From the NCBI GenBank assembly GCA_042577605.1, contig JBHPDY010000003.1, forward strand, positions 1 through 32,880: 32,880 bases of DNA, given 5' to 3'. The notes beneath the pieces are model-generated. The model saw nothing but the letters and a program-made list of their open reading frames with translations. It searched no databases and had not been told where the DNA came from. Below, in pieces: positions 12,263 through 31,804 of this stretch. Position 1 is the stretch's first letter; each line of letters begins with the position of its first letter. Origin of the DNA: Candidatus Margulisiibacteriota bacterium (lineage in GTDB: Bacteria; Margulisbacteria; Marinamargulisbacteria; JBHPDY01). A program made the position numbers and the translations under genes.

Positions 12263-13066
12263 TTATCCCCCTATTTGGACCATATAATCAAGAGCATTTG
12301 CAGTGCCGAATTCAGGTTTATTATGTAGAGCTTGCTCCAGAGCCTTTTCTAATGATATTTTCCTGATATCTATTGCATAATCTGAGAAAAGACAAGGCTT
12401 CAATCTGCCGTCGCAAGTTAGCCTGAGGCGGTTACAAATTTCGCATTGGCCTGCTTCTGCATTTTCAATAACATAGCGGGTGCCTTTTTTTAAGTTCATT
12501 TCTTTAATAAGTCGAAGTATGAGCTTGTTCTCCTTACAGAACTGCTTAATATCATCTATATCGTCTTCATTAAAATCTTTGAGTACCACTGTATTTATTT
12601 TTATGGGATAAAAGCCAACATCTTGGGCTGCTTTAATGCCCTTAATAACATCCCCTAATTCCCCTCCGCGGGTTAAAAATTTAAATTTATCCGGGTTTAA
12701 AGTATCTAAACTGATATTTATTCTTTTTAGGCCTGCGCTATATAAACTTTCTGCAAAATGAGAAAGAAGAGAGCCGTTTGTGGTAAGCCCAAAATCTTTC
12801 AAACCGGGTAGCGCAGCTATGTTTTTGACTAAAAAAATAATATTTTTCCTAACTAAAGGTTCGCCGCCTGTTAACCTGACCTTTTCAAATCCGGCTTGAA
12901 CAAAAAATTTTACAATATCATATATTTCTTCCAGGGATAATATGTCTTTATGGTTTTTTAACGGTACGCCCTCAGCTGGCCTGCAATACTGGCAGCGGTA
13001 ATTACATTTATCTGTAACAGATACCCGTAAATAATTTATTTTTCGCTTATAAGTGTCAATTGGCAT
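12263..13066 (-). CDS. moaA: GTP 3',8-cyclase MoaA (short form)
   Basis: YLRVSVTDKCNYRCQYC, RLTGGEPL, INISLDTL, CEICNRLRLTCDGRLKPCL, C-terminal IGG. Confidence 0.96.
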   Translation of the reverse strand: MPIDTYKRKINYLRVSVTDKCNYRCQYCRPAEGVPLKNHKDILSLEEIYDIVKFFVQAGFEKVRLTGGEPLVRKNIIFLVKNIAALPGLKDFGLTTNGSLLSHFAESLYSAGLKRINISLDTLNPDKFKFLTRGGELGDVIKGIKAAQDVGFYPIKINTVVLKDFNEDDIDDIKQFCKENKLILRLIKEMNLKKGTRYVIENAEAGQCEICNRLRLTCDGRLKPCLFSDYAIDIRKISLEKALEQALHNKPEFGTANALDYMVQIGG

Positions 13067-13081
13067 AATATTAAAATTAGA

Positions 13082-13672
13082 TTACTCCACTTTTTGGATA
13101 GATACCAAATCTTCCTTTGTATTTATATTAATAAAAGTTTTTTCTTGCTTATCAAAAGAAGCAACCTCTTTATCAGGTAGATATTTTACCTTTACTCTGT
13201 CTAAAAATCCTCTGATTTTTCTTTGTCCATTATTAAAAGAATCCTCAATTGCAGGAATACAATTCTTAGAATAATAAGCAAATAAAGGCTGTAATATACC
13301 CTTTCTTTCCGGAATTACCACATCGAATTCAGAGATGAATCCAGCCAGATAATCAAAAAGCTGTTGATTAAAAAAAGGCATATCAACAGCTGTAAGGAAA
13401 TTATATTTTGTATTGCTGTGCTTCAATCCGCTTAATAAACCCATTAAAGGACCTTTTTCTTTGATGCTGTCTCTGACTACTTGAAATTCAGTGCTTTCTT
13501 TATATAATTCAGGAGAATTAGTAACTACCATTAATTCTTTTATGTATTTTTTTAGTGAACTGATTTTTATTTGCAGAAGAGTTTGATGACCTATTTTTAT
13601 AAAGGCTTTTTCTACACCGCCTAAGCGAGTGCCTTTACCGCCGGATAATATAATGCCGGTTATGTTATTCAT
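13082..13672 (-). CDS. mobA: Molybdenum cofactor guanylyltransferase MobA
   Basis: ILSGGKGTRLGGVEKA, GPLMGL, AVDMPF, QPLFAYY, FININTKEDL. Confidence 0.95.
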   Translation of the reverse strand: MNNITGIILSGGKGTRLGGVEKAFIKIGHQTLLQIKISSLKKYIKELMVVTNSPELYKESTEFQVVRDSIKEKGPLMGLLSGLKHSNTKYNFLTAVDMPFFNQQLFDYLAGFISEFDVVIPERKGILQPLFAYYSKNCIPAIEDSFNNGQRKIRGFLDRVKVKYLPDKEVASFDKQEKTFININTKEDLVSIQKVE

Positions 13673-13678
13673 AACATA
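13661..13678. promoter_or_regulatory. Candidate ModE-type operator (TATGTT-N6-AACATA) overlapping mobA start codon
   Basis: TATGTTAT-TC-ATAACATA palindrome; same core at 14993-15010 and 19158-19175. Confidence 0.65.
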
Positions 13679-13917: not shown

Positions 13918-14175
13918 CTACTTTATCTCCCAGTCACGATTATTCAAGAATCTAGGCAACTCTTTTCGAGAAAAATAATGAGATACTTCTTTATCGAGGT
14001 CCAAAAAGGCATCCAAGCTTTCATCCATTTGCTCAGGAGTAAATTTTCCCCCCTTTTTCTTCTCAGCCCAAGTTACCGCGTCTTTTAATTTTTTCTTTAT
14101 CCTTTTTTCCTCTTTTATTGATTTGTTTTTAAAATTTTCCAAAACAACTTCTAACTTGTGGCCTAAGTTTCTCAT
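13918..14175 (-). CDS. Hypothetical protein (possibly the C-terminal half of 14129-14758)
   Basis: 85-aa Lys-rich helical ORF overlapping the upstream ORF by 47 nt, no clear RBS. Confidence 0.4.
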   Translation of the reverse strand: MRNLGHKLEVVLENFKNKSIKEEKRIKKKLKDAVTWAEKKKGGKFTPEQMDESLDAFLDLDKEVSHYFSRKELPRFLNNRDWEIK

Positions 14176-14758
14176 TACTAAGCATAGGCAAACATTCAGA
14201 CATAGTAGTCACAAAATTGGATATAGAGCTAAAAGGATGTTCAGACTCCATAAAAAAAATGGTTAACTGATTTTCGATCTCTTGTCTTTCGCTATTTCCT
14301 ATCTGACCTATAGACGAGAATTGAGAATCCAATTGCTGCATACAATAAATACCAAGCCTTGTACCTTGGCTAACCTCGACATCTTGATAAGATGGTGCAG
14401 TACGCGGAGGATTTACCTCAAGAAATCTTTTACTTAACCTTTGCGTAAAATCATCCATTCTTTTATCCAAATATTTTTCAGTGAACTTTTGTAACATTGG
14501 ACTATTGAATTTAGCTTTAGCCACTTCATTTTTAAGCATTGTCAATCCTTCGAGCTCTCGATCTGTTTTACTACTATAGCCCTTCGTGCTTCCACCTTTG
14601 TACTTCTGCAACGCTTTTTCAATATTCTTTTTCTGATTTCCACTCAAATCAGGAATATTCGAATTAGCCAACTTTTTGACACAATTATCAAAAGGCCCTC
14701 CTCCTTTCCTCTTGAAAATTCCTCCAAATACTTTTCCAACGCTTAAAGTCATAATCAT
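14129..14758 (-). CDS. Hypothetical protein (orphan-like)
   Basis: 209-aa ORF with AGGAG RBS upstream; no recognisable motif. Confidence 0.6.
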   Translation of the reverse strand: MIMTLSVGKVFGGIFKRKGGGPFDNCVKKLANSNIPDLSGNQKKNIEKALQKYKGGSTKGYSSKTDRELEGLTMLKNEVAKAKFNSPMLQKFTEKYLDKRMDDFTQRLSKRFLEVNPPRTAPSYQDVEVSQGTRLGIYCMQQLDSQFSSIGQIGNSERQEIENQLTIFFMESEHPFSSISNFVTTMSECLPMLSNEKLRPQVRSCFGKF

Positions 14759-14975: not shown

Positions 14976-15010
14976 TTGACGAGATTTTAATATATGTTTA
15001 TTTTAACATA
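14976..15010 (+). promoter_or_regulatory. wtpABC promoter with overlapping candidate ModE-type operator
   Basis: TTGACG (14976-14981)-N17-TATTTT; palindrome TATGTT-tatttt-AACATA (14993-15010) covers the -10. Confidence 0.65.
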
Positions 15011-15047: not shown

Positions 15048-15989
15048 ATGAAAAAACTCATTTTAGGAGTATGTTTATTTGCTTTAGTTTTAACAGGATG
15101 TACTGCTAAAAAACAGGAGAGTTTAACGATTTTCCATGCAGGAAGTTTGAGTATTCCTTTAAAGAAGATGACAGCGCAATTTAATAAGAAATTTCCAAAT
15201 GTAAAAGTGTTTTTAGAAGGTGCTGGAAGCAGGACCTGTGCCAGAAAAATAACTGATTTAAAAAAGAAAGCAGATGTTATGTTTTCTGCCGATAGTTCAG
15301 TTATTCAAACTTTGCTAATCCCTGAATATGCGGATTGGAACATTAATTTTGCCACCAACGAGATGGCTATTATGTTTACACCGAAGAGTAAATACGCCAA
15401 CGAAATAAATTCAAAAAATTGGCCTGATATCTTATTAAGGCCGGATGTAAACTATGGGCATTCAGACCCAAATGCAGATCCCTGTGGATACAGATCGCAG
15501 TTAGTATGGCAATTAGCTGAAAAATATTACAAGATAGGCTCTCTATATCAAAAGCTAAAAAACAAAAAACATTTTATTAGGCCTAAAGAAACGGATCTTT
15601 TAGCTTTGTTAGAATCTCATACAATGGATTATCTGTTTATTTATAGATCTGTTGCTGAGCAACATCATAGCAAATACATTTTGCTGCCTGACCAAATTAA
15701 CCTAAAAACAAAGCGATATGCAAAATTCTATAAGGGCGCCAAATTAAAAATCACTGGTAAAAAACCCGGCGCTTGGGTTACAAAAATAGGGAAGCCAATG
15801 GTATATGGATTAACAATACCTAAAAACGCACCCAACAGAAAAATGGCGGTAGAATATGTGAACTTTGTATTAAGTAAACAGGGGCAGGACGTGCTTAGAG
15901 GTAATGGGCAACCACCGATTATACCGCCAACGAGCCAAGAAAAATTAAAAATACCAAGCGAAATAAACAATACTGTAAAACAAATATAA
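15048..15989 (+). CDS. wtpA: Tungstate/molybdate ABC transporter substrate-binding lipoprotein WtpA
   Basis: Lipobox LTGC; FHAGSLSIP, EGAGSR, SAD, SDPNADPCGYR, RPKETDL, DYLFIYRSVA, YGLTIP motifs of WtpA. Confidence 0.92.
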   Translation: MKKLILGVCLFALVLTGCTAKKQESLTIFHAGSLSIPLKKMTAQFNKKFPNVKVFLEGAGSRTCARKITDLKKKADVMFSADSSVIQTLLIPEYADWNINFATNEMAIMFTPKSKYANEINSKNWPDILLRPDVNYGHSDPNADPCGYRSQLVWQLAEKYYKIGSLYQKLKNKKHFIRPKETDLLALLESHTMDYLFIYRSVAEQHHSKYILLPDQINLKTKRYAKFYKGAKLKITGKKPGAWVTKIGKPMVYGLTIPKNAPNRKMAVEYVNFVLSKQGQDVLRGNGQPPIIPPTSQEKLKIPSEINNTVKQI

Positions 15990-16037
15990 ATGTTATTAAG
16001 AAAATTTAAGTTTTGAGGCAGCGCAGAAAAAACAAAC

Positions 16038-16820
16038 ATGAAAAAAAACACTGTTAGCATTATTTTATTGTGGGCTTTAGGAGCAATAATTTTTTTATTC
16101 TTGATCCTACCGATTATACGAATAATAGCTAGCTCAGATATTGGGATATTCTTCCAGGCTGCCCAGGATAAAAAAGTTCTTACTTCAATTTTTATTACGC
16201 TCGAATGTGCTGCTTATGCGACCATATTTTCTGCGATTTTTGGCGTGGCCTTGGCTTATATAATTGCCAGATATGATTTCTGGGGTAAGTCTTTTATGGA
16301 ATCTGCCATAAATATCCCGGTCATTATTCCTCATACTGCTGCCGGGATTGCACTTTTATCAATTTTTTCAAAAGAGTTTTTTATTGGCAGATGGTTAGGT
16401 TTATTTAACATTTCAGTTGTTGATTCCAAGCTTGGTATTGTTATTGGGATGTTTTTTGTTAGCGCACCTTTTCTGATCAATGCCAGTATAAACGCTTTTC
16501 GAGCCATAGATGAGAAACTGGAAAAAACAGCCCGAACTCTGGGCGCAAACTTTGGGCAGACATTTTTTAAAATATCATTGCCTTTGGCAAAAAATGGCAT
16601 TCTTAAAGGTATGCTGATGATGTGGGCCAGAGGTATTTCAGAGTTTGGAGCGGTAGTGGTATTAGCCTATCATCCAATGGTTGCTCCGGTTTTAATTTTT
16701 GAAAATTTTGAGGCTTATGGATTAAAGTATTCCAAACCCCTTGCCGCCTTACTAATTATTATTTGCTTGGTGATTTTTTTCATTTTAACTGCCATAGGAA
16801 GAAAAAATGCTGAAAGCTGA
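16038..16820 (+). CDS. wtpB: Tungstate/molybdate ABC transporter permease WtpB
   Basis: PVIIPHTAAGIALL, FVSAPF, LEKTARTLGA, WARGISEFGAVVVLAYHP. Confidence 0.92.
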   Translation: MKKNTVSIILLWALGAIIFLFLILPIIRIIASSDIGIFFQAAQDKKVLTSIFITLECAAYATIFSAIFGVALAYIIARYDFWGKSFMESAINIPVIIPHTAAGIALLSIFSKEFFIGRWLGLFNISVVDSKLGIVIGMFFVSAPFLINASINAFRAIDEKLEKTARTLGANFGQTFFKISLPLAKNGILKGMLMMWARGISEFGAVVVLAYHPMVAPVLIFENFEAYGLKYSKPLAALLIIICLVIFFILTAIGRKNAES

Positions 16821-17865
16821 GAATATTTGCAAACAATTTAAGAATTTCTCATTGAAAAATCTTTCTATAGAAGTTGCTCAGGGCGAATATATGGCTTTGA
16901 TCGGCCCATCCGGTTCAGGTAAAACCATATTTTTAGAAATATTAGCCGGAGTTCAAAAAGAGGACAGCGGTAAAATATTTCTTTCAGGCAATGAAATCAC
17001 TAACCATTTGCCGGAAAACAGAAATATAGGGCTTCTATATCAGAATTTTATGCTTTTTAATCATTTGACTGTGTTTGATAATATTGCGTTTAGTTTGAAA
17101 ATCAAAAAAGAACCGCCTATAAAATTGGCTGAATCAGTCAAAAAAATAGCAGCTTTACTAAGAATAGAGGATTTATTAGAAAGGTATCCGAAAAATCTAA
17201 GCGGAGGGGAAAAGCAAAGGGTAGCCCTGGCCAGATCATTAATAATGGAGCCGAAAATATTGCTCTTGGACGAGCCCTTTTCCGCCATTGACGCCCATCT
17301 GCGCAAAACCGTTGTTAGTGAGATTAAAAAACTACATAAGTCTCTTAACTTAACCGTTATTCATGTTACACATGATATAGATGAAGCTTTATATTTAGCT
17401 GATAGCATCAGCATTATCAATAAAGGAAAAATAATCCAAAAAGGAAATAAAGAACAAGTTTTTAAAGATCCCCAAAATAAATTCGCAGCAGATTTTTTAG
17501 GATACAAAAACATATTTAAAGGCAGGATCCGAAATAATAATGAGTTTATAATTGATCTTAATGCTACAGGTAACAAAGAAATTGCGATTACTTTGGATTC
17601 TACACACCATCATCAGGAAGCTTATTTATTAATTCCACCCGAGAGTATTATTGTTTCCAAGTCCGCTAATCCATCCAGCGCCCGTAATCAGTTTAAAGGA
17701 GTAGTATCGGAAGTCATTCAAAAAAAGGGTTTTTATGAAATCATTATTGATCTGGGTGTGATGATTTCGGTCTATATTACATCAGAATCTTTAACTAAAC
17801 TAAATTTAGAAGAATCATCCAATTGCTTTATATCTTTCAAAGCAACTGCACTAAAACTTTTTTAA
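16807..17865 (+). CDS. wtpC: Tungstate/molybdate ABC transporter ATPase WtpC with C-terminal TOBE domain
   Basis: GPSGSGKT, LSGGEKQR, LLLDEPFS, HVTHD; C-terminal SSARNQF..ITSES...L.L....FKATA molybdate-binding TOBE motif. Confidence 0.92.
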   Translation: MLKAENICKQFKNFSLKNLSIEVAQGEYMALIGPSGSGKTIFLEILAGVQKEDSGKIFLSGNEITNHLPENRNIGLLYQNFMLFNHLTVFDNIAFSLKIKKEPPIKLAESVKKIAALLRIEDLLERYPKNLSGGEKQRVALARSLIMEPKILLLDEPFSAIDAHLRKTVVSEIKKLHKSLNLTVIHVTHDIDEALYLADSISIINKGKIIQKGNKEQVFKDPQNKFAADFLGYKNIFKGRIRNNNEFIIDLNATGNKEIAITLDSTHHHQEAYLLIPPESIIVSKSANPSSARNQFKGVVSEVIQKKGFYEIIIDLGVMISVYITSESLTKLNLEESSNCFISFKATALKLF

Positions 17866-17926: not shown

Positions 17927-18853
17927 TTAAAACACTACTTGCCACTGAGCAGTTAACTGATTGTTATCAACCTCATTAGTTTCTTCTTTCATCATCAAAT
18001 AGTTTACTTGCAGCTTGGTTTTCTTTGTTACAAACCAGTTCCAACCCAAGGTTAAACTATCTTGTCTATCACCAGATATGCCAGCGTCAGGATCATAAGA
18101 ATCGACCATCACTATTGCTTGTTGATCTGGTAAAAGTTTGTAGCCGACTAAAACAAATCCACCCTGTTCTTTTACCACAGAATTTGACATAAGCATTAAT
18201 TCCGAATGAATATCCAACGCATCTTTTTTGTATCTAATATTTAAAGCCCCGCCTTTTTTGTTTTTATTATTTGTATTGTCTTTACCTAAAAAACCGCTGC
18301 CACCTATTTCAAAACCTGGAATTGGATTCACTATATCTACTCTTCCTATAATATCCTTACTGTCATTACTATCCGCGGTATTTCTACCAGCGCCATTAAA
18401 TAAGCCAACAGCATATTTGAAAATGTTGTATTGACCCATGACTTGTACGCCGATGTCATATTTATGAGCAATATTATCAATGGAATTCGGCAAGTTAATA
18501 GTATTCCAGGTATGAGCTACGGGCAGGTAAGTTTTACTAAAAGGTGATTTAAATTGCCCGCCCCGTAGGGTCAAAAACTCATTAATAGTCATATTTAAAT
18601 GCGCGACCCAAAGAGCTGGTGAAGTTACTCCATCGGCCAAAATATTATAGTAAACATTCTCATCCAAATAACCCTTAAATCTAAACCTGGCTTTTGCGAT
18701 TTTAAATTGATCTATAGTGCTATCTGATTGTGTGAATTGAGTTTGTAAAAATCCTTCGATTATTAAAGGTTTTTTTTCAGTAGCCGCAAAACTATTAATC
18801 CTAAAAATGCATATAACAATCAACAACAGGAACATATATTTCTTGAATTTCAT
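17927..18853 (-). CDS. Outer-membrane porin (OprO/OprP-like anion-selective porin family)
   Basis: Signal peptide; F.IAKARFRFKG, GQFKSPFS, DIGVQ, GLFNGAG, TLGWNWF, KLQVNY; alternating beta-strands and C-terminal Phe. Confidence 0.8.
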   Translation of the reverse strand: MKFKKYMFLLLIVICIFRINSFAATEKKPLIIEGFLQTQFTQSDSTIDQFKIAKARFRFKGYLDENVYYNILADGVTSPALWVAHLNMTINEFLTLRGGQFKSPFSKTYLPVAHTWNTINLPNSIDNIAHKYDIGVQVMGQYNIFKYAVGLFNGAGRNTADSNDSKDIIGRVDIVNPIPGFEIGGSGFLGKDNTNNKNKKGGALNIRYKKDALDIHSELMLMSNSVVKEQGGFVLVGYKLLPDQQAIVMVDSYDPDAGISGDRQDSLTLGWNWFVTKKTKLQVNYLMMKEETNEVDNNQLTAQWQVVF

Positions 18854-18858
18854 TGGTT

Positions 18859-19053
18859 TTACTCTTTATTCTCTCTTTTTATTTTTACAATTATTTCTTG
18901 TGCTTTTTCAGCATTTTTCAGAGAACATACCATTCCATTAATAGCTGAACCAAAGACATTTTGCACAAAATTATTAATGCCAACCGGCTTTCCGTTTACT
19001 TCCAGCTGGACTTTAAACTGGCATTGATGATCACAAGATTTACTCATAGACAT
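18859..19053 (-). CDS. Small protein resembling the C-terminal domain of MobB-type proteins
   Basis: GGAGG RBS; VQLEVNGKPVGINNFVQNVFGSAINGMVCSLK pattern recalled from MobB C-termini and Moco clusters. Confidence 0.6.
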   Translation of the reverse strand: MSMSKSCDHQCQFKVQLEVNGKPVGINNFVQNVFGSAINGMVCSLKNAEKAQEIIVKIKRENKE

Positions 19054-19078
19054 ACCTCCGTTATCTTTAATTTATTTA

Positions 19079-19110
19079 TTAATCAGTGCGGCATTCGCCG
19101 CACTGATTAA
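19079..19110. terminator. Perfect 14-bp hairpin between the ModE-like gene and the small gene
   Basis: TTAATCAGTGCGGC-ATTC-GCCGCACTGATTAA; terminator, RNA-stabiliser or REP role not distinguishable. Confidence 0.5.
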
Positions 19111-19152
19111 AGAAAAAAACTTGGCTACGCCGACTTTTTAGTCAGCTTCAAA

Positions 19153-19186
19153 TAGATTATGTTCTGGTGAACATAATACAGTAAGG
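19153..19186 (-). promoter_or_regulatory. Promoter and candidate ModE-type operator upstream of the small gene-porin unit
   Basis: ATTATGTTC-TGGT-GAACATAAT perfect palindrome (19156-19177), within a - strand TTACTG-N17-CATAAT promoter-like arrangement. Confidence 0.65.
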
Positions 19187-19204: not shown

Positions 19205-19963
19205 TTAAATGTTAGGTTTGATATTCTCTATCTCGTGCTCATATTTTGAGATTAAGGCTTTAGCTAAAGCTGTCAAGTCTGAACCGGAATTCTTCTTGTT
19301 TTCCACCTTTAAGCACAATACTTTCTGCCCCAGGCGTTCTTCCATAGTTTTAATATATGCCCAGGCATGCCTATAAGACATCTTTAGTTCTTTTGCGGCT
19401 TTATTAAGTGAATTAGTTTTCCGGATCATTTTTAGCAGTTCATATTTCCCTGGACCAAAAACCATTTTATTATCTTTATCAAGCCAGATTTTCACCTTTA
19501 CTGCCAATTGCTGCAAAATAAAATCTGCCTGAAATTCTTCAATGATATTTATAATCTCAGCTTTCGTGTCAGGATCAAAAAAACTTATACCATCTATTTT
19601 TTCTTTTACTGGTAAAATATCCATCCCTTCTGAAAACAAAATATCTGCTTTTTGTATAGCTGTCCCAGCAGAGGCTTTAGCTTCCTTAGTGGTACTGTTA
19701 ACAAAAAAACAGAGGTCAGGTTTCAGGTGGTCCAAAATTTGGTTGCTTTCTATTATTAAAAAAGTATATTGCTGATTTTTGGTTGCGTTTTTTATGAAGT
19801 CCAGGGCTTCCTTAATATCATTTATTAATAATTCAGGCTTGTTTTTAACATGACCATGCCCGATTTTTAGGATCATAGATTTTGGTAATAAGCTTAATAA
19901 TTTTCGAGCTAGAGTTGTCTTACCAATATTACTATGAGAACCGGAAATAACAATTATTTTCAT
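19205..19963 (-). CDS. ModE-family winged-helix regulator fused to an N-terminal P-loop (MobB-like) domain
   Basis: N-term IIVISGSHSNIGKTT (Walker A) and FLIIESN; C-term VKIWL..FGPGKYELL..I....SLNKAAKELKMSYRHAWAYIKTMEERLG..GSDLT (ModE wHTH); no TOBE domains. Confidence 0.85.
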   Translation of the reverse strand: MKIIVISGSHSNIGKTTLARKLLSLLPKSMILKIGHGHVKNKPELLINDIKEALDFIKNATKNQQYTFLIIESNQILDHLKPDLCFFVNSTTKEAKASAGTAIQKADILFSEGMDILPVKEKIDGISFFDPDTKAEIINIIEEFQADFILQQLAVKVKIWLDKDNKMVFGPGKYELLKMIRKTNSLNKAAKELKMSYRHAWAYIKTMEERLGQKVLCLKVENKKNSGSDLTALAKALISKYEHEIENIKPNI

Positions 19964-20778
19964 AAGCCCAAAATTCTTTCTTCGCCAGTGTAAATATTAG
20001 CTTTTGTCCCTCGCACATACCCTAAAAGGGTAATATTAAATTTTTGAGCCATTTCTACAACCGCAGCTGTTGGGGCAGACCTGGAAACCACAATCGGAAC
20101 TTTAAGTCGCAAACATTTAATTAGAATTTCAGAAGAAACTCTGCCGCTGGTAATGATAAGACTTTCTTTTGTATAGTCTAGTTTATCTTCTTTAAGAAGG
20201 ATACCGGCAATCTTGTCCACGCAATTATGCCTACCGATATCTTCATTGAAAACAGAAAAATTATCATTGTAAAAATTAACACTATGAACACCCCCGATAT
20301 TTCTATACAACTCAGACTGTTTATTAAAATCCTGCATAAGTTCCCAGATTTTAGTAATAGGTACTTGGAAATCACTATCAACTTTGCCAAACTTTTCTAG
20401 TTTTAAAGGATTAATATAGGTTAGGCCTTTTCCGCATCCGGAGGTTACACTTCTGACGGTTTCTTTGGGAATGACTGCTTTATTACTTTTGGTGTTAATT
20501 ATGACGGCCATTAATTGTTCATTAAAACTAACGTCTTTAATATCCTGCATTGAATCAATCATAGCTTCCGTAAACAAAAAACCAAGGGCTAGTTCTTCCT
20601 GATATTCGTTGAGACACAATAAAGAAACAAAATCCATATTGTTTAGAATGACTTTTAAAGATATTTCAGAGATGATTTGTTTTTGGATCTTTTCTGTGAT
20701 GATTTTGTCTTCGGTTTTGGAGACTTGGATTACCGGAAACTCAGAGGTTAGATTGGCATTAAATTGATTATTGATCAT
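19960..20778 (-). CDS. fdhD: Formate dehydrogenase accessory sulfurtransferase FdhD
   Basis: ELALGFLFTE, TSGCG, GGVHS, EDIGRHNCVDKIAG, SGRVSSE, SRSAPT..A..FNITLLGYVRG; likely ATG at 20778. Confidence 0.95.
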   Translation of the reverse strand: MINNQFNANLTSEFPVIQVSKTEDKIITEKIQKQIISEISLKVILNNMDFVSLLCLNEYQEELALGFLFTEAMIDSMQDIKDVSFNEQLMAVIINTKSNKAVIPKETVRSVTSGCGKGLTYINPLKLEKFGKVDSDFQVPITKIWELMQDFNKQSELYRNIGGVHSVNFYNDNFSVFNEDIGRHNCVDKIAGILLKEDKLDYTKESLIITSGRVSSEILIKCLRLKVPIVVSRSAPTAAVVEMAQKFNITLLGYVRGTKANIYTGEERILGL

Positions 20779-20841
20779 ACTTACTTGCGAATATAGTGGA
20801 AAACCGCAAGTAAGACAAGCAATTTTCCATCCCATAAATTT

Positions 20842-20960
20842 CTAACTGGCCTACTTTAGTGTTGGTGATTTAGCTTGAAATGGTGCCTAAGAAAATGGGC
20901 ATCTCAAAACTAGAGTATTGAGCTAGCTTCATTTCACCAACACTAAAGTAGGCCAGTTAG
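20842..20960. mobile_element. 119-bp MITE-like element with 27-bp perfect terminal inverted repeats
   Basis: CTAACTGGCCTACTTTAGTGTTGGTGA (20842-20868) with exact reverse complement at 20934-20960; flanked by CATAAATTT / CATAAATTG (8/9 direct repeat). Confidence 0.8.
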
Positions 20961-20982
20961 CATAAATTGCACAACAGCCCTC

Positions 20983-22008
20983 TTATACAGCTATACGCGG
21001 TAATCCTTTGCCCACACTTCCTATAATTGAAGCATCCTGCATTCCAGAACTATGAAGCTTTTGCAAAACCTTATCCGCCAATGACTCATCCACAGCCATC
21101 AATATCCCCCCGGAAGTAATAGCATCCAACATAATCATCTTAAGATTATTATCCAAATCCCCGGAAAACTCTGCTTTTCCCTCAACAAACTCCAAATTTC
21201 TCCGCATAACACAGCTCACACAACCAGCCTCTACCAGATCATAAACCCCATCAATAACCGGAACCTTTCCACTATCAATTCTAATAGAAACCTTACTAGC
21301 CTCAGCCAATTTCAGAGTATGACCCAATAAACCAAAGCCTGTAATATCCGTAGCAGACTTAACATTAAATTCCTGCATAATTTCCGCGGCTTTTTTGTTC
21401 AAGGTTTTCATGGTTGTTACAGCTTTTTGATATAACGCATCATTTGCTTCGCCCACCTTTTTAGCAGCAATAATTACTCCAGTACCTAATGGTTTGGTTA
21501 GGATCAGAACATCACCTGGTTTGGCATTTGAGTTGGTAATTATCCTGTCCGGATGGACAGTGCCTGTAACTGCCAGCCCATATTTTGGTACATCATCGGT
21601 TATGGTGTGCCCGCCTGTGATCACAGCCCCGCTTTCTTTGACTTTATCCATGCCACCGGCCAGTATTTCTTTCAAGATATCCAAAGATAGATTTTTTTTG
21701 GGGAACATTACAATATTCAAGGCATTTATTGGTGTGCCGCCCATAGCATAAACATCACTAAGGGCATTTGCCGCAGCCACCTGACCGAAATCATAAGGAT
21801 CAGAGCAGACAGGTGGGAAAAAATCCGTGGTTTGGATAAGGGCTATTTCATCAGTCAGCTGATATACTCCTGCATCATCATGGGTATCAATATCAACTAA
21901 AAGTCTCTTGTCTGTGTTTTTGGGTAGACCGGACAAAGCTTTTTCCAGTTCATTGGCCGGAAGTTTTGCAGAGCAGCCGCCGCTTTCTATTAGTTGAAGT
22001 AAATCCAT
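20983..22008 (-). CDS. selD: Selenide, water dikinase (selenophosphate synthetase), Cys-type
   Basis: GGCSAK, DDAGVY, QTTDFFPP, FGQVAAANALSDVYAMGG, GGHT, LTKPLGTG, TDITGFGLLGH, TSGG; GGAGG RBS before ATG 22008. Confidence 0.97.
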   Translation of the reverse strand: MDLLQLIESGGCSAKLPANELEKALSGLPKNTDKRLLVDIDTHDDAGVYQLTDEIALIQTTDFFPPVCSDPYDFGQVAAANALSDVYAMGGTPINALNIVMFPKKNLSLDILKEILAGGMDKVKESGAVITGGHTITDDVPKYGLAVTGTVHPDRIITNSNAKPGDVLILTKPLGTGVIIAAKKVGEANDALYQKAVTTMKTLNKKAAEIMQEFNVKSATDITGFGLLGHTLKLAEASKVSIRIDSGKVPVIDGVYDLVEAGCVSCVMRRNLEFVEGKAEFSGDLDNNLKMIMLDAITSGGILMAVDESLADKVLQKLHSSGMQDASIIGSVGKGLPRIAV

Positions 22009-22034
22009 ATGTTGTCCTCCCATTAAAAGATATG

Positions 22035-23183
22035 TTATTTCCTGATAATCTTTTCCAGAACACCAATTAAACAATCAATTTCTTCTTTATTGTTAAAATA
22101 ACTCAAACTAATCCTTAAAGTTCCTTCCGGAAAAGTATTTATTGTTTTATGAGCAGATGGGGCACACTGCAATCCAGGTCTGGTCAAAATTCCGTATTCT
22201 TTATCTAGAATATGAGCAATCTCAGCTGGTGATCTATCTCTAATATTAAAGCTAATAATACCAGGACAGCACTTATCTGAGTTATATATTTCTATTTCCT
22301 TGAAATTTCTTAAACCATCCAACATGGTTTTTGATAGTTTTTGCTTGTGATTATATATGGTATCAAAGCCCGTCTTAAGTATAAACTCAATGCCAGCTCG
22401 TAAACCGGTAATGCCAGGCGTATTAGGCGTGCCAGCTTCCAATTTGTCCGGCAAAAACTCCGGCTGCTCTTCATGCTCTGATCTGCTGCCTGTCCCACCC
22501 TGCGCCAGTGATTCTATATCAGTTCTATTATTTATACACAGACCTCCGGTACCTTGCGGGCCAAAAAGGCCTTTATGGCCGGTAAAGGTTAATAGATCTA
22601 TCTTATCCTTTTGCATATCAATTGGTAACACACCGGCTGTTTGAGCGCAATCAACCAGAAAAACAATCCTTTTTTCCATACATATTTTCCCTATTTCCTT
22701 AATTGGTAAAATCTGGCCAGTAACATTTGAGGCATGCGTTAAAACCACTAATCTTGTTTCAGGCCTAATACTAGTTTGAAAGGATGCCTTATCAAATCCT
22801 TGGACATCTTTATTTTTGATTTGGGTAAAGTTAATACTCTTATGTTTAGCCAGCCAATTCAAAGGACGCATTACAGCATTATGTTCCCAGGAACTGGTAA
22901 TAACATGATCTCCTGATTTCAATATCCCTTTCAGGGCAATATTCAAAGCATGCGTAGCGTTTAATGTAAAAACAACATTGTCAGAATTTCCCACATTAAA
23001 AAACGAAGAAATCAATTCTCTGGTTTCAAATAATACACGTCCTGCGTCAACAGATAGGCTGTGGCCTGATCGTCCTGGATTGGCGCCGATGTTTCGCATG
23101 AAATTCTGCATAGCAGAAATTACCTGGGGTGGTTTTGGGTATGATGTGGCAGCGTTATCAAAATAAATATATTTATTTTTCAT
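22035..23183 (-). CDS. Class-V PLP aminotransferase: cysteine desulfurase / selenocysteine lyase family
   Basis: YFDNAATSYPKP, EHNAV, HASNVTG, VDCAQTAG, FTGHKGLFGPQGTG, EAGTPN, RPGLQCAP; lies between selB and selD. Confidence 0.9.
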   Translation of the reverse strand: MKNKYIYFDNAATSYPKPPQVISAMQNFMRNIGANPGRSGHSLSVDAGRVLFETRELISSFFNVGNSDNVVFTLNATHALNIALKGILKSGDHVITSSWEHNAVMRPLNWLAKHKSINFTQIKNKDVQGFDKASFQTSIRPETRLVVLTHASNVTGQILPIKEIGKICMEKRIVFLVDCAQTAGVLPIDMQKDKIDLLTFTGHKGLFGPQGTGGLCINNRTDIESLAQGGTGSRSEHEEQPEFLPDKLEAGTPNTPGITGLRAGIEFILKTGFDTIYNHKQKLSKTMLDGLRNFKEIEIYNSDKCCPGIISFNIRDRSPAEIAHILDKEYGILTRPGLQCAPSAHKTINTFPEGTLRISLSYFNNKEEIDCLIGVLEKIIRK

Positions 23184-23207
23184 GGTGTTTTTTATAATTC
23201 CGATCGT

Positions 23208-25163
23208 TTAACCAATTTGATTTTCCAAAAAAGCCCGCCCAAAATCCGTTATTTTCCTATGATCCCCAACCCTAACCGTAACACCTTCCCCATCAAACAA
23301 AGAAATCAACAACAAACAAATCTTCCGATTCCCCTGCACAATATCCCGAAACTGGGCAATGGTCACCCCATCTTTCTGCCTAACCAATTCCTTTAATAAT
23401 TTTTCCCTGCAACCATCAACAATCGAAGCATGGATATAATTACCGTCAATGACATAGGCTTTTTTGGCCCTTATCTGATAATGCAGGAATTTTTTTAATT
23501 CCTCTTCAAACATCCCTTGCGGCTTTATTTTTGGCAGTAGTTCTGACATTAACGGTGTTTGCATGCCACAACTTTTCAGATAATTATCCAGCCAGGCAAT
23601 ATTTTTTTTGGTTTTTTCATCCAGGCGCACATTATGCTCAGCCAAACACCAGGTATGGGCAGTTTTTTTTAATTTATTATCTTTTTGCAGGCCGAGGAGC
23701 ATTGAATTGAGCAACAGCTCTCCTGCGGTATTTTTCTTTAATCCAAACCTGCCTAATAATTCCTGAAAGGTTAGGCCATTAGGATCAATAATATTTTTTC
23801 TGTGATAAGAAGCAATACTTTCTATTATTCTTTTTTCCAGGGCAGCTGCTTTTTCTTTTATGATCAACACAGTTTTATTTTCCAGAGAATATCGAATAAT
23901 ATCTTCCGGAAATCCGTTTTGCACTGCTTTAATAGCTTCGGCTTCTGAAATATTTAGGGCCTGACAAATATCACTTAAGAACACAGCCTCATAACGCTTT
24001 TTAGTTTCCAGGGCGATCAATTTGCCAACATCTCCGGAAACCAGATCTTGCATTTGTTTTATCAATTTCAGAGGCCTGCGTCTATGGTGTAGGGGAGTAG
24101 GATCAATAATAATTCCACCGCCTATTGTAGAATCACAAGAAGTATTTCTAATAACAAACCTATCCCCTTGTCTTAAAACACAAGGATATTCCAAATGGAT
24201 TTGAGTTAATGCTGTTTCCCCGCTGGTTATTTCATTTTTATCAATTAAATGGATCCTTGCCTGTGCTTCAAAAGTACCGCAATGAAAAATAGCCTGGGTC
24301 CAGATGGAAAGGTTCCGGCTATAATCAAATATCTCTAAACTGGCATCTAATTGCTGGGTAGGAGTAAGCTCTTGGTCAGAAAGCAGTAACCCGCGTTTAA
24401 AATCATTTTTTTCCAGACCTACCAGGTTTATTGATGCCCGGTCTCCAGCCCTTATTTCAGATACTTCTTTTCCATGCCGTTCCAACCGTCTGATTCGAAG
24501 CGGTTTTTTATCTCCCGGAAGCAGAAATAGATTCTGTTCTTTTGCTATGCAACCACTGATAACCGAACCTGTAACAACAGTCCCAAATCCAGCAACACTG
24601 AATATCCGGTCAATATACATTCTAAAAATATCTTGAGAATTTCTTTCCGGAATAGTTTTCGACAGCGCAATAATATTTGCTTTCAAAGCATCAATGCCTG
24701 CCATAGTTTTGGAGGAAACCGGAATAATATCAGCATTTTCCAGGAAAGAACCTTTTACCAAGTCTTGTATTTCTTCCTTAGCTAGTTCTAAGATTTCCTC
24801 GTCCACCAAATCGGATTTTGTTAATACAATTAATCCGGTTTTTATGCCCAATAAATCCATGATTTTCAGATGTTCACGTGTCTGGGGCATAACTCCGCTA
24901 TCAGCAGCAACCACAAATAAAACAAAGTCTATACCGCTAGCCCCGCCCACCATTGTGTGGATAAAATCTTTATGGCCGGGAACATCCACAATACCAATAC
25001 TGTTCCCATCAGGTAAATCCAGATAAGTAAAGCCAAGATTAATGGTAATCCCACGCTTTTTTTCTTCTTTATGAGTATCACAATCAATATTAGTCAGAGC
25101 TTTGATCAAGGCAGTCTTTCCATGATCAATATGCCCGGCAGTACCCATTATCAAATGTTTCAT
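23208..25163 (-). CDS. selB: Selenocysteine-specific elongation factor SelB
   Basis: GTAGHIDHGKT, EEKKRGITINLGF, DVPGH, MPQTREH, TKSD, RMYIDRIFSVAGFGTVVTG; C-terminal winged-helix region (FRD....RK). Confidence 0.97.
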   Translation of the reverse strand: MKHLIMGTAGHIDHGKTALIKALTNIDCDTHKEEKKRGITINLGFTYLDLPDGNSIGIVDVPGHKDFIHTMVGGASGIDFVLFVVAADSGVMPQTREHLKIMDLLGIKTGLIVLTKSDLVDEEILELAKEEIQDLVKGSFLENADIIPVSSKTMAGIDALKANIIALSKTIPERNSQDIFRMYIDRIFSVAGFGTVVTGSVISGCIAKEQNLFLLPGDKKPLRIRRLERHGKEVSEIRAGDRASINLVGLEKNDFKRGLLLSDQELTPTQQLDASLEIFDYSRNLSIWTQAIFHCGTFEAQARIHLIDKNEITSGETALTQIHLEYPCVLRQGDRFVIRNTSCDSTIGGGIIIDPTPLHHRRRPLKLIKQMQDLVSGDVGKLIALETKKRYEAVFLSDICQALNISEAEAIKAVQNGFPEDIIRYSLENKTVLIIKEKAAALEKRIIESIASYHRKNIIDPNGLTFQELLGRFGLKKNTAGELLLNSMLLGLQKDNKLKKTAHTWCLAEHNVRLDEKTKKNIAWLDNYLKSCGMQTPLMSELLPKIKPQGMFEEELKKFLHYQIRAKKAYVIDGNYIHASIVDGCREKLLKELVRQKDGVTIAQFRDIVQGNRKICLLLISLFDGEGVTVRVGDHRKITDFGRAFLENQIG

Positions 25164-25164
25164 A

Positions 25165-26598
25165 TCAGTTTATTTTTGTAGAGACGCGATGAATCGCGTG
25201 GCTACAAACAATGGAAATATAAGGAATATCTTCCTTATTCAAAGTCAAAACATCAAAAACCAAATTCCCCTGCCGTAAAATACCGAGCACAGGTTTATCC
25301 AAATTTAATAATTCCTGATAAAGCTTTTCCGCAAATAAAACGTTTTCCTTGCGTTTTTTATCTTTTAAGCTGATTTTCACCCCAAAGCTATCTATCTTTA
25401 GCTCAGGCAAGGTGCCTCCCCCGCATTGTCCCTGGCTTTTAATAACTTCAGAAACAAAGCCTTTTGCCTCAAACTCAGCTTTTAATTTCTCAGCCAAAGA
25501 CAGAAGTTCTTTTTCAGTACGCTCCAGAAAATTAAAAATAGGTGTGTTTTCTGCTAAAAGGTTATCGGTCAGATAGTTCTCACAAGCAGCAGCTAAAGCA
25601 GCAATGGTTAATTTCCCAACTCTTAAGGCTCTCATCATAGGCGCTTTAGCCAGTTTGCGGATAAGTTCTTTCTTCCCGCAAATAATTCCAGCTTGAGGCC
25701 CCCCTAGTAATTTATCGCCGCTAAAACAAACCAGGTCAGCCCCTTGTTTAACCGCACTTCGAACATCAGGCTCTTCAGATAATGATAGGTTTTTTGGTTT
25801 TCTTAAAAGGCCGGAACCAATGTCATATACAACCGGGATATTTTTCTTTTTTCCTAGTTCAACCAAAGCTTTCAGGCCTGCTTCTTCCGTAAAACCTTTG
25901 ATAGCAAAATTTGATTGATGAGCTTTGAAAAGCAAAGCGGTTTTTTCATTGATGGTTTTTTCATAATCAGAAATCCTGGTGCGGTTCGTAGTCCCTGTTT
26001 CACGCATTACAGCCCCAGCTGCGCTCATAATTTCCGGTATCCTAAACGATCCTCCGATCTCAATTAGTTCCCCTCGGGAAACAATTGTTTCTTTATCTTT
26101 GGAAAAGGTATTTAAGATCAGAATAATGGCAGCAGCATTATTATTAACTACAATAGCGTCTTCTGCTTGGGTCAGGAATTTTAAAATTTCTGATAAATGC
26201 CCGTTCCTATGACCCCGTTTAGCAGTTTTAAGATTAAATTCCAGGTTACAATAACCTGAAGCGCTTTCTAGTGCGTTTTTTAAAACATTATTTCCTAATG
26301 GCGCTCTGCCTAGGTTTGTATGGATAACGACTCCAGTGGCATTTATCATTGGTTTTAAGGCAGGTTTGGTTAGCGCTGAAATCAAATCCTTAATTTGGGA
26401 GATTAATTCATTTTTATCAGGATTTTTGTTGTTTTTCTGTATATCTGCACGGGCTTTATCTAGAATACTTCTAATAGAATATACTACCAGCTCTTGGCTG
26501 AATTTTTGGATTAAATCTTTGATAGGAGTTTCTGTTAATAGGGTGTCTACTCCTGGAAGTTTTCTCATAATATATTTTTTTAAATGTTCTTTTTTCAT
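25165..26598 (-). CDS. selA: L-seryl-tRNA(Sec) selenium transferase SelA
   Basis: INATGVVIHTNLGRAPL, VNNNAAA, SRGELIEIGGSFRIPEIM, GTTNRT, FSGDKLLGGPQAG, RALRVGK, GGGTLP. Confidence 0.97.
   Translation of the reverse strand: MKKEHLKKYIMRKLPGVDTLLTETPIKDLIQKFSQELVVYSIRSILDKARADIQKNNKNPDKNELISQIKDLISALTKPALKPMINATGVVIHTNLGRAPLGNNVLKNALESASGYCNLEFNLKTAKRGHRNGHLSEILKFLTQAEDAIVVNNNAAAIILILNTFSKDKETIVSRGELIEIGGSFRIPEIMSAAGAVMRETGTTNRTRISDYEKTINEKTALLFKAHQSNFAIKGFTEEAGLKALVELGKKKNIPVVYDIGSGLLRKPKNLSLSEEPDVRSAVKQGADLVCFSGDKLLGGPQAGIICGKKELIRKLAKAPMMRALRVGKLTIAALAAACENYLTDNLLAENTPIFNFLERTEKELLSLAEKLKAEFEAKGFVSEVIKSQGQCGGGTLPELKIDSFGVKISLKDKKRKENVLFAEKLYQELLNLDKPVLGILRQGNLVFDVLTLNKEDIPYISIVCSHAIHRVSTKIN
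25177..25206. repeat. GTAG-type REP palindrome inside the selA 3' end
   Basis: TGTAG-AG-ACGCGAT-GA-ATCGCGT-GG-CTACA; translated as CSHAIHRVST in SelA. Confidence 0.7.
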
Positions 26599-26599
26599 T

Positions 26600-26935: not shown

Positions 26936-26958
26936 ATTTAAATCCTAGTAATTTTATA

Positions 26959-27087: not shown

Positions 27088-27106
27088 GGGCCAAAAATAT
27101 CATTTT

Positions 27107-28703: not shown

Positions 28704-28745
28704 AAATACTCCTTTCCATAACAACCATAAAGGGTGTTGATTTTA

Positions 28746-29051: not shown

Positions 29052-31790
29052 TTAACTAAAGGCTACTTCCTTTTCTTTTGTTTTAGCTTGACCTTTAGTC
29101 CTTATTTTTGTTACTTGTGCAGAACAAGCTTTATATTCTGGTATATTTGCTACCGGATCAAATACCGGATTAGTCAGAATATTAGCAGCGGCTTCTTTGA
29201 AATGGAAAGGAATGAAAATAGTTCCTTTTCCTATTCTCTTAGTAACAAAAGCCGGAGCTTCTATTTCGCCTCTGCGGGTACTTATTTTCACAGTTTCACT
29301 GTTTTGGATTCCTAGAGCTTCAGCATCTTCTACGGAAATCATTACATGTGGTCCGGAAAGATTATTTAACTCTTGAGTTTTTCTGGTCATAGTACCTGTA
29401 TGGAAATGCTCAAGTACCCTTCCGGTAGTCATGATAAAAGGATAGCTCTTATCAGGAAGTTCAGCCGGCTCTCTGAAATGAATTCCTTTCATTAAACCTT
29501 TACCTCTGGCAAAAGTGCCTTTGTGAAGGAAAGCTGTGCCAGGGTGAGTAGCATTTGGACATGGCCATTGAAGACCGCTGTCAGCAACTCTTTTCCAGGA
29601 AATACCGCCATATTGCGGAGTCAATTCAGATATTTCCTTAGAAATATCAAGCGCTGATTTATATTTCCAATTAGCACCCATAGCTTTGGCAATATTCTGG
29701 ATTATCACCCAGTCATCCTTTGCTTGGCCAGGCGCATTAATAGCTTTTCTAACCCTCTGGGCACGACGTTCGGTGTTAGTGAATAGACCATCTTTTTCTG
29801 CAAAACTTGCTGCCGGAAGAACGATATCAGCTAATTCAGCGGTTTCAGTTAAAAAGATATCCTGAACGATTAACAGTTTTACCTTTTTAAGAGCTTCCCT
29901 GACGTGATTTATGTCAGGATCGCTGAGCATAGGGTTTTCACCCATACAATAAAGGGCTTTTACATTACCTTTATCACAACCTTCAATCATTCCATTAACG
30001 GTTAGGCCTGGTTTTTCTGCCATCTTAACGCCCCAAGCTTTAGAGAACTTGTCGCGTGCTTTCTCGTCAATTACTTTTTGATATCCAGGGAAAACAACAG
30101 GTAAAGCACCCATATCACAGGCACCTTGAACATTTGACTGTCCCCGTAAAGGATTTACACCACCGCCGTTTTTACCGAGGTTACCGCAAAGCATTTGTAA
30201 ATTAGCTGTAGACCAGACATTATCCGTACCTGAAGTATGTTGAGTAATACCCATAGCATAGAATAAAGCAGCTGTTTCTGCTGTCCCAAAAAGCTCGGCA
30301 ATTTCTTCTATGGTTTTGGCTGGAATGCCGGTAATCTTTTCTACTTTCTGAGGAGTATATTCAGCCACAACTGACTTTAACTCTTCAAATCCTTCAACAC
30401 GTTCTTTAATGTATGCTTTATCATGCCAATTATTCTTGATAATGACATGCATTATCCCATTTAGAACTGCAACGTCTGTCCCGCAGCGCTGCTGGGCGTA
30501 GATAGTAGCATATTTAGCCATGTCAATTTCTTTAGGATCAATAACAATAAGTTTGGTTTTTCCAGCCCTTACAGCTTGTTTGATCTTACTGGCAATTACC
30601 GGGTGGGCTATTGCTGTAGCAGAACCGGTAATAAGTATTACATTTGCATTATCTATACCAGCGATATCGTTTGTCATTGCTCCGGAACCTAGTGAAGCGG
30701 CCAGACCGGCCACTGTGGCGCTATGTCACAACCTAGCGCAGTGGTCGACATTATGGTTGCCGACCACCTGCCTAAAAAATTTCTGAAAAGCAAAGTTTTC
30801 CTCATTTGTAACCTTTGCAGAAGCCAGGCCGGCAATAGCGTCCGGGCCGTTTTTCTTTTTTATTTCTATAAATGATTTAGAAATAGTGGAAATAACTTCT
30901 TCCCAGGTTGCTTCTCTTAGTTCTCCACCCTTTTTATCTCTCATAAGGGGAGTTGTTAACCGTTCAGAGCTGTTTACAAAATCATATCCGTAACGGCCTT
31001 TTACACAAAGCATTCCATCATTGGTAGGTGCGCCTTCAACTCCGGTTACTTTTACAATCTTATTATCCGCTTTATTAATATGTAAGGTAACAGAACAACC
31101 CACTCCGCAGTAAGAACAAATTGTATTAACTTTTTCCAATTCCCAAGGGCGGCCTTTACCAATTGATTTCTTATCAACAATGGCTCCAACCGGGCAAAGC
31201 TGGGAACATTCACCGCATTGAACGCAGGATGATTCTCCCATTTGAAGATTATTATCGCAAATAACCTTGGTATCATGGTTGCGATAACCAAAATTTAAAA
31301 CCTCATGCACAACAGTTTTGTTGTCAGCTTCAACGCAGCGACCGCATTGAATACATTTGCTGTGGTCCATTACGATCATTTCAGATGAATCGTCAACTTC
31401 TTTTTTGTCGGGAATTTCAAAAGCAGGGACTTCTATGCCTAGTTTGTAAGCAGCTTCCTGCAATTCACATTCTCCGTTTTGTTCACAAGATAAACAATTA
31501 TGCTGTCCGTTTGCCAGAAGAAGATTTACAATCATTTTTCTAGCTTCGATAATCTGCTCTGTTTCTGTTTTTATATCCATGCTATTTTGAGCTTGGACCG
31601 AACAAGCTGTTTGTAAGCCGTTCATGCCTTCTATTTCTACTACACATATTCTACATTTGTTGGCCTGTCCTGTTTTGGGGTGATAGCAAAGAGTAGGAAT
31701 ATAGATATTGTTCTCTTTTGCTACGTCAAGTATTGTTTGACCTTCGGTAAAGTTTATTTCTCTTCCATTTATTATTAATTTAGAACTCAT
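29052..31790 (-). CDS. fdhF: Selenocysteine-containing formate dehydrogenase alpha subunit (W/Mo-bisPGD; N-terminal NuoG-like Fe-S domains), about 912 aa
   Basis: ORFs 30726-31796 and 29052-30713 are in frame, joined through TGA at 30726-30728 giving DHCARL-U-HSATVAGL..GSGAMTN; CSYCGVGC, LCVKGRYG, PLRGQSNVQGACDMG, GLFTNTERR, PEYKAC. Confidence 0.96.
30696..30714 (-). promoter_or_regulatory. Bacterial SECIS hairpin
   Basis: UGA + 11 nt (CAUAGCGCCAC) + AGUGGCC-GGUCU-GGCCGCU stem-loop with G-led apical loop. Confidence 0.85.
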
Positions 31791-31804
31791 AATCACCTCA
31801 CTCC

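Follow-up and report, generated by a model that had tools for sequence, protein, structure and literature searches.

In a stretch of 32,880 nucleotides from a metagenome-assembled genome (MAG) of a Candidatus Margulisiibacteriota bacterium (assembly GCA_042577605.1, contig JBHPDY010000003.1, positions 1 to 32,880; this whole stretch is hereafter called the window), which judged by its gene content is a tungsten/selenium formate dehydrogenase (FDH) island, we analysed the gene of a putative regulator that combines a small P-loop domain with a ModE-type winged helix-turn-helix (wHTH). The gene (19205..19963, minus strand, stop codon 19205-19207) is an open reading frame (ORF) of 252 amino acids, which according to the ORF list is unbroken across both domains and whose composition is supported by domain matches and an AlphaFold2 (AF2) model. 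We use the name mini-MobB for the P-loop domain, because it lies below the Pfam MobB threshold, yet a profile link and its fusion partners point to MobB and the pathway of molybdopterin guanine dinucleotide (MGD). Mini-MobB comprises residues 1-152 (19508..19963, minus strand); its translation contains a Walker-A-like motif (GSHSNIGKTT, residues 8-17), K33-x-G35, an hhhhE strand (FLIIES, residues 68-73) with E72 at its end and a long C-terminal helix (131-152). The wHTH follows as residues 154-252 (19208..19504, minus strand), including, at its N-terminus, a beta strand that is paired in the model of the dimer. The start codon of the regulator (ATG, 19963-19961) overlaps the stop codon (TGA, 19962-19960) of the formate dehydrogenase sulfurtransferase gene fdhD (19960..20835, minus strand; Pfam FdhD-NarQ E 8e-68, TIGR00129 173.6 bits at a cut-off of 140.9), the two forming ATGA.

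The C-terminal part of the protein was matched by the NCBIfam model ModE_repress (TIGR00637) over residues 170-243 (E 1.5e-14; 53.8 bits, under the cut-off of 98.5 bits) as well as by Pfam HTH_1 (E 2.8e-6), and a sequence search of the PDB retrieved 2ijl, a protein consisting of ModE-N only (E 1.8e-9), and E. coli ModE (E 4.5e-4). No TOBE or Mop domain was detected in the regulator at E<=1, and the C-terminal di-Mop/TOBE part of the ModE family was thus not found. In the AF2 model of the full-length protein, built from an alignment of 86 rows (pLDDT, the predicted score of the local distance difference test, 92.7; predicted template modelling score, pTM, 0.86), the two domains take up all 252 residues: a beta-alpha P-loop core (1-111) is followed by two helices and by the long helix 131-152, which passes straight into the first strand of the wHTH without any spacer. 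These results agree with the original prediction, which had read from the sequence a P-loop domain N-terminal to a ModE wHTH, recognised the Walker-A-like motif and the hhhhE strand, seen no molybdate-binding TOBE domain and proposed coupling to fdhD through ATGA, of which the overlap itself is confirmed by the coordinates.

The public gene call (P0001, 223 amino acids) begins at Met30 and leaves out 19877-19963 of the window, so that the Walker A motif is omitted and the P-loop domain stays hidden in database annotation, where the fusion proteins are named only 'molybdate transport system regulatory protein'. Five homologues (249-253 amino acids) conserve residues 1-29 and thereby support the longer start.

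The P-loop domain and its relation to MobB

Modelled separately, the N-terminal domain reaches a pLDDT of 96.1, and its best 50 VIA structural matches are P-loop folds only; a different fold would have contradicted the original prediction, and as far as the model goes the domain certainly has a P-loop fold, with structure alone not singling out MobB. A phmmer search with residues 1-150 against 1.84 billion representatives (clusters at 50% identity) yielded 138 proteins at E<=1e-3, 38 of which were found at E<=1e-10, and mini-MobB is accordingly described here as a family without Pfam assignment, comprising at least 138 such clusters. Most of the 134 relatives taken into a Pfam scan (the other four are fragments of 52-64 amino acids) are stand-alone proteins of about 140-160 amino acids without a Pfam family. 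Among the same 134, the domain is fused to MobA (NTP_transf_3) in 26, to a HTH_1/ModE wHTH in six, to MoeA in three and to FdhD in one protein. These partners associate the family with MobA, MoeA and the MGD pathway, and the gene neighbourhoods agree. Given these fusions of its relatives with MobA, MoeA and FdhD, mini-MobB most likely takes part in the assembly line of the tungsten or molybdenum (W/Mo) bis-MGD cofactor.

A remote homology to MobB was found by two approaches. The Pfam MobB model was matched at E<=0.01 by 22 of the 134 scanned relatives (lower-scoring proteins of about 200 amino acids), seven of them above the cut-off, and hhalign linked the profile of 38 stand-alone members with that of 14 MobB-scoring members at a probability of 99.8% (E 1.7e-29). 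In the ESM Atlas, 'hypothetical protein' clusters were retrieved, together with one lower-ranked cluster containing MobB in 31% of its members, which should be taken as a lead only. Several results weigh against so close a tie to MobB. The regulator itself scores 12.5 bits with Pfam MobB (PF03205; E 0.14, residues 9-29 only) and does not reach the cut-off of 26.6 bits; a profile search of the PDB starting from the MobB-scoring members brought up MobB (1p9n/1np6) at an E value of about 0.05, and with the profile of the 38 stand-alone members it gave nothing significant. In the structural comparison, MobB is tied with other SIMIBI-type NTPases and kinases, and the top 50 Foldseek matches of the domain model are generic P-loop kinases, among which MobB is not listed. 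Finally, the MobB-scoring relatives carry an insertion (PGKDT..RLK.AGA..VVWV), which the family of the regulator lacks. Of the 'MobB-like GTPase' suggested originally, the likeness therefore stands by the profile link and the fusion partners, and membership falls by the missed Pfam threshold and the absent insertion. From these comparisons the domain appears to be a remote relative of MobB, connected with the MGD pathway through its fusion partners and lying outside Pfam MobB by the curated threshold.

In the MAG of the window, which is 63% complete, no canonical MobB was found, and the mini-MobB family probably fills the role of MobB in many genomes annotated as lacking mobB. In a study on Methylorubrum extorquens, the two-hybrid signal of MoeA1 was high with MobA and MobB, that of FdhD was above background with the same two proteins, and MobB was required for the maturation of the tungsten-containing FDH (PMC13197769).

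Recurrence of the fusion

Altogether 16 distinct proteins fusing mini-MobB to the ModE wHTH were found, originating from independent assemblies. Besides the regulator of the window itself, five of them are full-length homologues at 44-52% identity (249-253 amino acids), one protein is common to loci L089 and L090, five more 50%-identity clusters contain the fusion, and four fusions at 24-29% identity derive from MAGs labelled Planctomycetia, Planctomycetota, Phycisphaerales and Deltaproteobacteria. Residues G14, K15, T/S16, K33, G35 and E72 are kept in all 16. The domain order is the same across the fusions, and no spacer separates the mini-MobB helix from the first ModE strand. A fusion confined to this contig would have suggested an artefact, and the differing start of the public gene call (Met30 instead of Met1) could indeed nourish the suspicion that two genes were wrongly read as one. 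The uninterrupted frame, the continuous chain of the AF2 model (pLDDT 92.7) and above all the independent homologues sharing the architecture refute such an error of assembly or gene calling, to which we assign a next to negligible likelihood.

The history of the fusion was approached with a quick maximum-likelihood tree (IQ-TREE) of 121 N-terminal domains, for which 30 of 151 rows with fewer than 85 positions of the hidden Markov model (HMM) were dropped and branch support is given by SH-aLRT (the Shimodaira-Hasegawa-like approximate likelihood ratio test) only. The deepest split with 100% support separates nine fusions from the seven others, and the fusions are intermixed with stand-alone, MobA-fused and FdhD-fused members. 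The starred branches of the tree force at least four changes of label, a count to be read with the reservation that some 'stand-alone' rows may be fragments. Judging from this topology, the history is one of repeated fusion or else repeated fission.

In four of the five fusion loci examined, the gene lies among genes for FDH, fdhD, mobA, moeA, moaA, moaC or transporters. In three loci of the Planctomycetota type the fusion gene stands immediately upstream of moeA, and in L008 and L015 mobA is found one or two genes upstream of it. A search of genome contigs for related loci with the single protein found no relative, and the alignment used as a query did find relatives. A 150-amino-acid N-terminal extension of FdhD in L015 was considered as another mini-MobB and rejected, since the family HMM gave no match at E<=1e-4.

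The two domains may also meet as separate proteins. In other metagenomic and MAG loci, MobB-like ORFs, each recognised by the HMM of the stand-alone family in two stretches, adjoin genes of wHTH-only ModE proteins in L013 (1093-2253), L091 (1371-2612, likewise in L092) and L098 (1979-2614), which suggests that the association of MobB and ModE exists in the form of neighbouring genes as well.

Operators and neighbouring genes

Three exact palindromes of the form TATGTT-N6-AACATA occur in the window, and not a single one arose in 100 shuffled sequences (0/100). The first (TATGTTattcatAACATA, 13661..13678) spans the start codon of mobA (13672-13670); the second (TATGTTtattttAACATA, 14993..15010) ends 38 nucleotides upstream of the start codon of wtpA; the third (TATGTTctggtgAACATA, 19158..19175, in its extended form ATTATGTT-N6-AACATAAT) lies 30 nucleotides beyond the stop codon of the regulator, upstream of a 64-amino-acid ORF and a porin gene. 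In the whole MAG (1.71 Mb) exactly these three boxes were found, all within about 5.5 kb of the regulator gene, and a control with the reversed pattern gave none. The box is also conserved at orthologous loci: in L088 an exact copy overlaps the stop codon of the orthologous regulator, ahead of an ORF with a signal peptide, and in L089/L090 it lies 11-28 nucleotides before the ATG of wtpA, beside the orthologous regulator. The second box overlaps a promoter-like TTGACG-17-TATTTT (14976-15004) and the third a promoter-like -10 element on the minus strand (19200-19173).

In its extended form, aTTATGTT-N6-AACATAAt, the consensus belongs to the ModE box type RTTATGT-N8-RCATAAY, which, according to PMC12327845, is the box of Methanosarcina acetivorans ModE validated by electrophoretic mobility shift assay (EMSA). 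The third box (ATTATGTTCTGGTGAACATAAT) fits the M. acetivorans motif, as quoted there, in full, and the first two fit it with one or two mismatches in the flanks; the 6-N6-6 geometry is the same as that of the E. coli consensus given in a portion of PMC545781. Three operator palindromes had been expected from the outset and were recovered as described, at a frequency far above chance; the motif is not new and matches a known, archaeal-type ModE box. Sequence evidence of this kind makes it most likely that the wHTH pair of the regulator binds the three aTTATGTT-N6-AACATAAt boxes. Relaxed TTATGY-N8-GCATAA-like sites were noticed in L009 (intergenic, upstream of an operon) as well as in L008 and L015 (inside mobA), and were not counted, because matches at 10 of 12 positions are expected once per 12-17 kb by our estimate, which is about chance.

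A different regulator, encoded for example on an unassembled part of the genome, might bind these boxes and leave other targets to the fusion protein, as the incompleteness of the MAG would permit. Besides the regulator, no ModE-type HTH was found in the 63% of the genome available, the three boxes of that genome cluster around its gene, the box occurs together with the orthologous regulator in L088 and L089, and the box type is the one validated for ModE in PMC12327845, all of which makes this explanation very improbable in our view.

Downstream of the second box, the tungstate ABC transporter genes wtpABC (15048..17865, plus strand) were identified by the NCBIfam model NF003196 for WtpA (390.7 bits, cut-off 355), with WtpB and WtpC as best matches below their cut-offs; the C-terminus of WtpC holds the only TOBE domain found in the MAG. 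The mobA-moaA operon (12263..13672, minus strand; Pfam NTP_transf_3 E 2e-32, Radical_SAM and Mob_synth_C, NCBIfam MobA and MoaA) has its start codon within the first box. Between the second box and this operon, divergent from wtpA, an ORF of 209 amino acids (14129-14758, minus strand) has no Pfam or NCBIfam match and no homologue in the related loci fetched.

The third box faces the 64-amino-acid ORF (18859..19053, minus strand) and, downstream of it, a Porin_O_P-like outer-membrane porin (17927..18853, minus strand; Pfam PF07396 E 7e-10). The small ORF is homologous to a C-terminal domain fused to mini-MobB in the protein P0011 (BLASTP 35% identity over 51 amino acids, E 3e-10), the same being true of P0024 by eye, and it matches the C-terminus of NCBIfam PRK14494 'MobB/FeS domain' at E 1.2e-7, below the cut-off. 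Because a homologous domain is fused to mini-MobB in P0011 and, by eye, in P0024, the 64-amino-acid protein is a candidate partner of the N-terminal domain of the regulator, the fusions providing a Rosetta-stone hint that the two may be in contact. No Pfam match was obtained for it even at E 10, a word search for homologues of near length gave only itself, and tblastn did not find it in the orthologous loci save for a weak match in L046. Neither P0011 nor P0024 conserves the cysteines of the small ORF. A homologue of the porin (28% identical; L012, 6658-7611) stands immediately upstream of a wHTH-only ModE gene in an Omnitrophota MAG. The porin of the window is a candidate for the passage of oxyanions (tungstate/molybdate) under the control of a ModE-type regulator.

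Further on, the formate dehydrogenase alpha subunit (29052..31796, minus strand) contains an in-frame TGA in the motif CARLUH, and beside it a full selenium set (20983-28724) consists of selA, selB, a selD-like gene of the AIR-synthase family, a class-V aminotransferase, a YedE selenium transporter and tRNA-Sec. The window also includes moeA, moaC, a MOSC-MoaB gene and a formate/nitrite transporter (Pfam Form_Nir_trans). Rfam at gathering thresholds recognised tRNA-Sec only in the window and no molybdenum cofactor (Moco) riboswitch. Between the selD-like gene and fdhD, a near-perfect stem of 27 bp encloses about 70 nucleotides (20850-20965, minus strand; -62.1 kcal/mol when folded as RNA, z -7.8, with 0/200 shuffles as good and no Rfam match); it might act as a terminator or insulator, or be a regulatory RNA or else a mobile repeat of small size. 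GC-rich, perfect or nearly perfect hairpins with similar AGTGCGG/CCGCACT-like cores are located in untranslated regions near the third box (19071-19118), near the first box (13689-13714) and downstream of the FDH gene (29007-29044); these may be terminators or a short repeated element.

A regulatory model and its place among known systems

A complex prediction with two copies of the regulator, based on an alignment of six rows, gave an ipSAE of 0.66 (0.67, 0.66 and 0.66 in the single runs), and the best of three controls gave 0.00. Of proteins solved as homodimers, 20 of 30 reach the mark applied, as does one of 23 proteins solved as single chains. The runs share at least 95% of their contacts, and the pLDDT of the partner is 86. 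The predicted interface (residues 112-116, 139-150, 152-163, 167-169, 211-214 and 231-248) consists of strand 153-163, paired antiparallel with its counterpart, together with the C-terminal helix 231-248 and helix 139-150 of mini-MobB.

We propose that the protein acts as a dimeric ModE-type repressor of wtpABC, of mobA-moaA and of the operon of the 64-amino-acid ORF and the porin, in which the Mop sensor has been replaced by a MobB-like, nucleotide-binding adaptor whose state is relayed through helix 131-152, a proposal that we hold with slightly more confidence than doubt. The homodimer would carry the small MobB-like P-loop domain in place of the molybdate-binding di-Mop domain, and its wHTH pair, seated on the three boxes, would hold under its control the uptake of tungstate (wtpABC), the final step in making bis-MGD (mobA-moaA) and the production of the small protein and the porin. 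Mini-MobB, with its nucleotide site intact, would in addition serve the assembly of W/Mo-bis-MGD for the neighbouring selenocysteine formate dehydrogenase. The nucleotide state of this domain, or its occupancy by a partner, would act on the wHTH pair by way of helix 131-152, which is packed into the dimer interface, and the genes for uptake and cofactor synthesis would in this manner follow the state of the cofactor pathway and not the free oxyanion.

Several points speak against this proposal and should be kept in mind when it is weighed. What the analysis shows is the architecture, the fold, the recurrence of the fusion with its conserved Walker A, and the boxes with their conservation. Binding to the boxes, repression and above all control of DNA binding by the P-loop are things that we infer, the last of them from the architecture, the conserved Walker A residues and the predicted dimer geometry. 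The P-loop core (1-111) lies outside the predicted interface, and the passing of the dimer mark may reflect the memory of the model for the solved ModE dimer 1b9m, since ModE dimers have been solved. As to distribution, a search of 40 class-level relatives did not bring up the fusion, its only other match being weak (46 residues, with internal stops); one fusion locus (L014) is without Mo/W gene context; and relatives of 105-130 amino acids consisting of the wHTH only are common, so that this wHTH subfamily can apparently work without a fused sensor. The four distant fusion loci lack the exact box, and the scan that gave the promoter-like matches overlapping the boxes is not enriched over shuffled sequences (41 compared with 34.9 expected). 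Finally, the MAG is 63% complete, and its unassembled part could contain a further ModE, a Mop protein or a canonical MobB.

Some of these points are also what would be expected if the protein simply united two independent functions, a ModE-N repressor that is constitutive or otherwise controlled and a mini-MobB doing the job of MobB in MGD synthesis, the fusion serving co-expression only and involving no allostery. This main competitor of our proposal draws on the widespread wHTH-only relatives and on the position of the P-loop core away from the interface, on the variety of Moco proteins fused to mini-MobB, which a promiscuous adaptor would be expected to show, and on the loci in which moeA directly follows the fusion gene or mobA precedes it; moreover, E. 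coli ModE truncated of its Mop part binds DNA without molybdenum, as reported in PMC12327845. It fits less well with the way in which the deepest supported split of the tree divides the fusions and with their occurrence, going by the labels, in several phyla, with the constant domain order and the missing spacer before the first ModE strand, and with the contribution of helix 131-152 to the predicted dimer interface; besides, a repressor of an uptake system that lacks Mop would be of little use without some input signal. We consider it a serious but rather unlikely explanation.

The input could alternatively be the oxyanion itself. P-loops bind tetrahedral oxyanions, and tungstate or molybdate might occupy the site as a phosphate mimic, the P-loop thereby replacing the Mop domain as a sensor. 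A regulon centred on the tungstate transporter WtpABC, the lack of any Mop/TOBE sensor found besides the C-terminus of WtpC and the strict conservation of Walker A in the 16 fusions would be in line with such direct sensing. E72 and the further conserved residues are in keeping with an ordinary nucleoside triphosphate site, and the occurrence of the same domain in fusions with MobA, MoeA and FdhD suggests an adaptor of the pathway and not a metal sensor; direct sensing of the oxyanion thus appears improbable to us.

Going beyond the proposed nucleotide-dependent repressor, one may imagine a transcription factor whose input is how far the W/Mo-bis-MGD assembly line is occupied, in place of free metal: mini-MobB would cycle between a complex with MoeA, MobA and FdhD (or with the 64-amino-acid partner) and a free, nucleotide-bound state, and one of these states alone would let the wHTH pair clamp its boxes. 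We put this forward tentatively and with more doubt than conviction. If true, tungstate import, the porin and MGD synthesis would be set by the demand for cofactor, and a general answer would be at hand to how ModE proteins without Mop sense their signal. Such sensing has been called unclear since 2004 (PMC545781), and the role of MobB still carries question marks in a study from 2026 (PMC13197769); the two problems are joined by MobB-like P-loop adaptors that recur in covalent linkage with the DNA-binding domain of ModE. With its small and clean predicted regulon of three boxes, the system lends itself to a direct test that takes a single protein and three DNA probes.

Compared with E. coli ModE (1b9m, 1o7l), in which the wHTH is N-terminal, the regulator carries its wHTH C-terminally, after a P-loop domain and without Mop/TOBE, and the half-site differs (TATGTT instead of TATATA). 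ModE of M. acetivorans shares the box type and, in contrast to the regulator described here, consists of a wHTH followed by one Mop subdomain and has no P-loop domain, as stated in excerpts of PMC12327845. Single-domain ModE-N proteins such as that of A. tumefaciens (2ijl) are stand-alone proteins of about 105-135 amino acids, whereas here a P-loop domain of 152 amino acids is fused in front; genes of this single-domain type were noted in Desulfovibrio and D. psychrophila (Rodionov et al. 2004). From MobB of E. coli (1np6/1p9n) and Bacillus stearothermophilus (1xjc), mini-MobB is set apart by its score below the Pfam threshold and by lacking the PGKDT..RLK.AGA..VVWV insertion.

The TunR/TaoR proteins of sulfate reducers likewise represent an alternative W/Mo-responsive regulation built from shuffled ModE parts. 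They keep a Mop-like effector domain and have the DNA-binding domain replaced, the opposite of what is seen in the regulator. TaoR is mentioned in the excerpted part of PMC12327845. The same logic is seen in the fusions of MobA with MobB, for which NCBIfam holds bifunctional models, and of MoeA with MobB (mentioned in a passage of PMC13197769), where a small P-loop adaptor is likewise joined to a partner of the pathway; in those cases the partner is an enzyme, and here it is the domain of a transcription factor. Our literature search, with older surveys of ModE architecture outside its reach, found no published description of a mini-MobB::ModE fusion. What appears to be new compared with these systems is the companion that a DNA-binding domain of the ModE family has here, together with a protein family without Pfam assignment.

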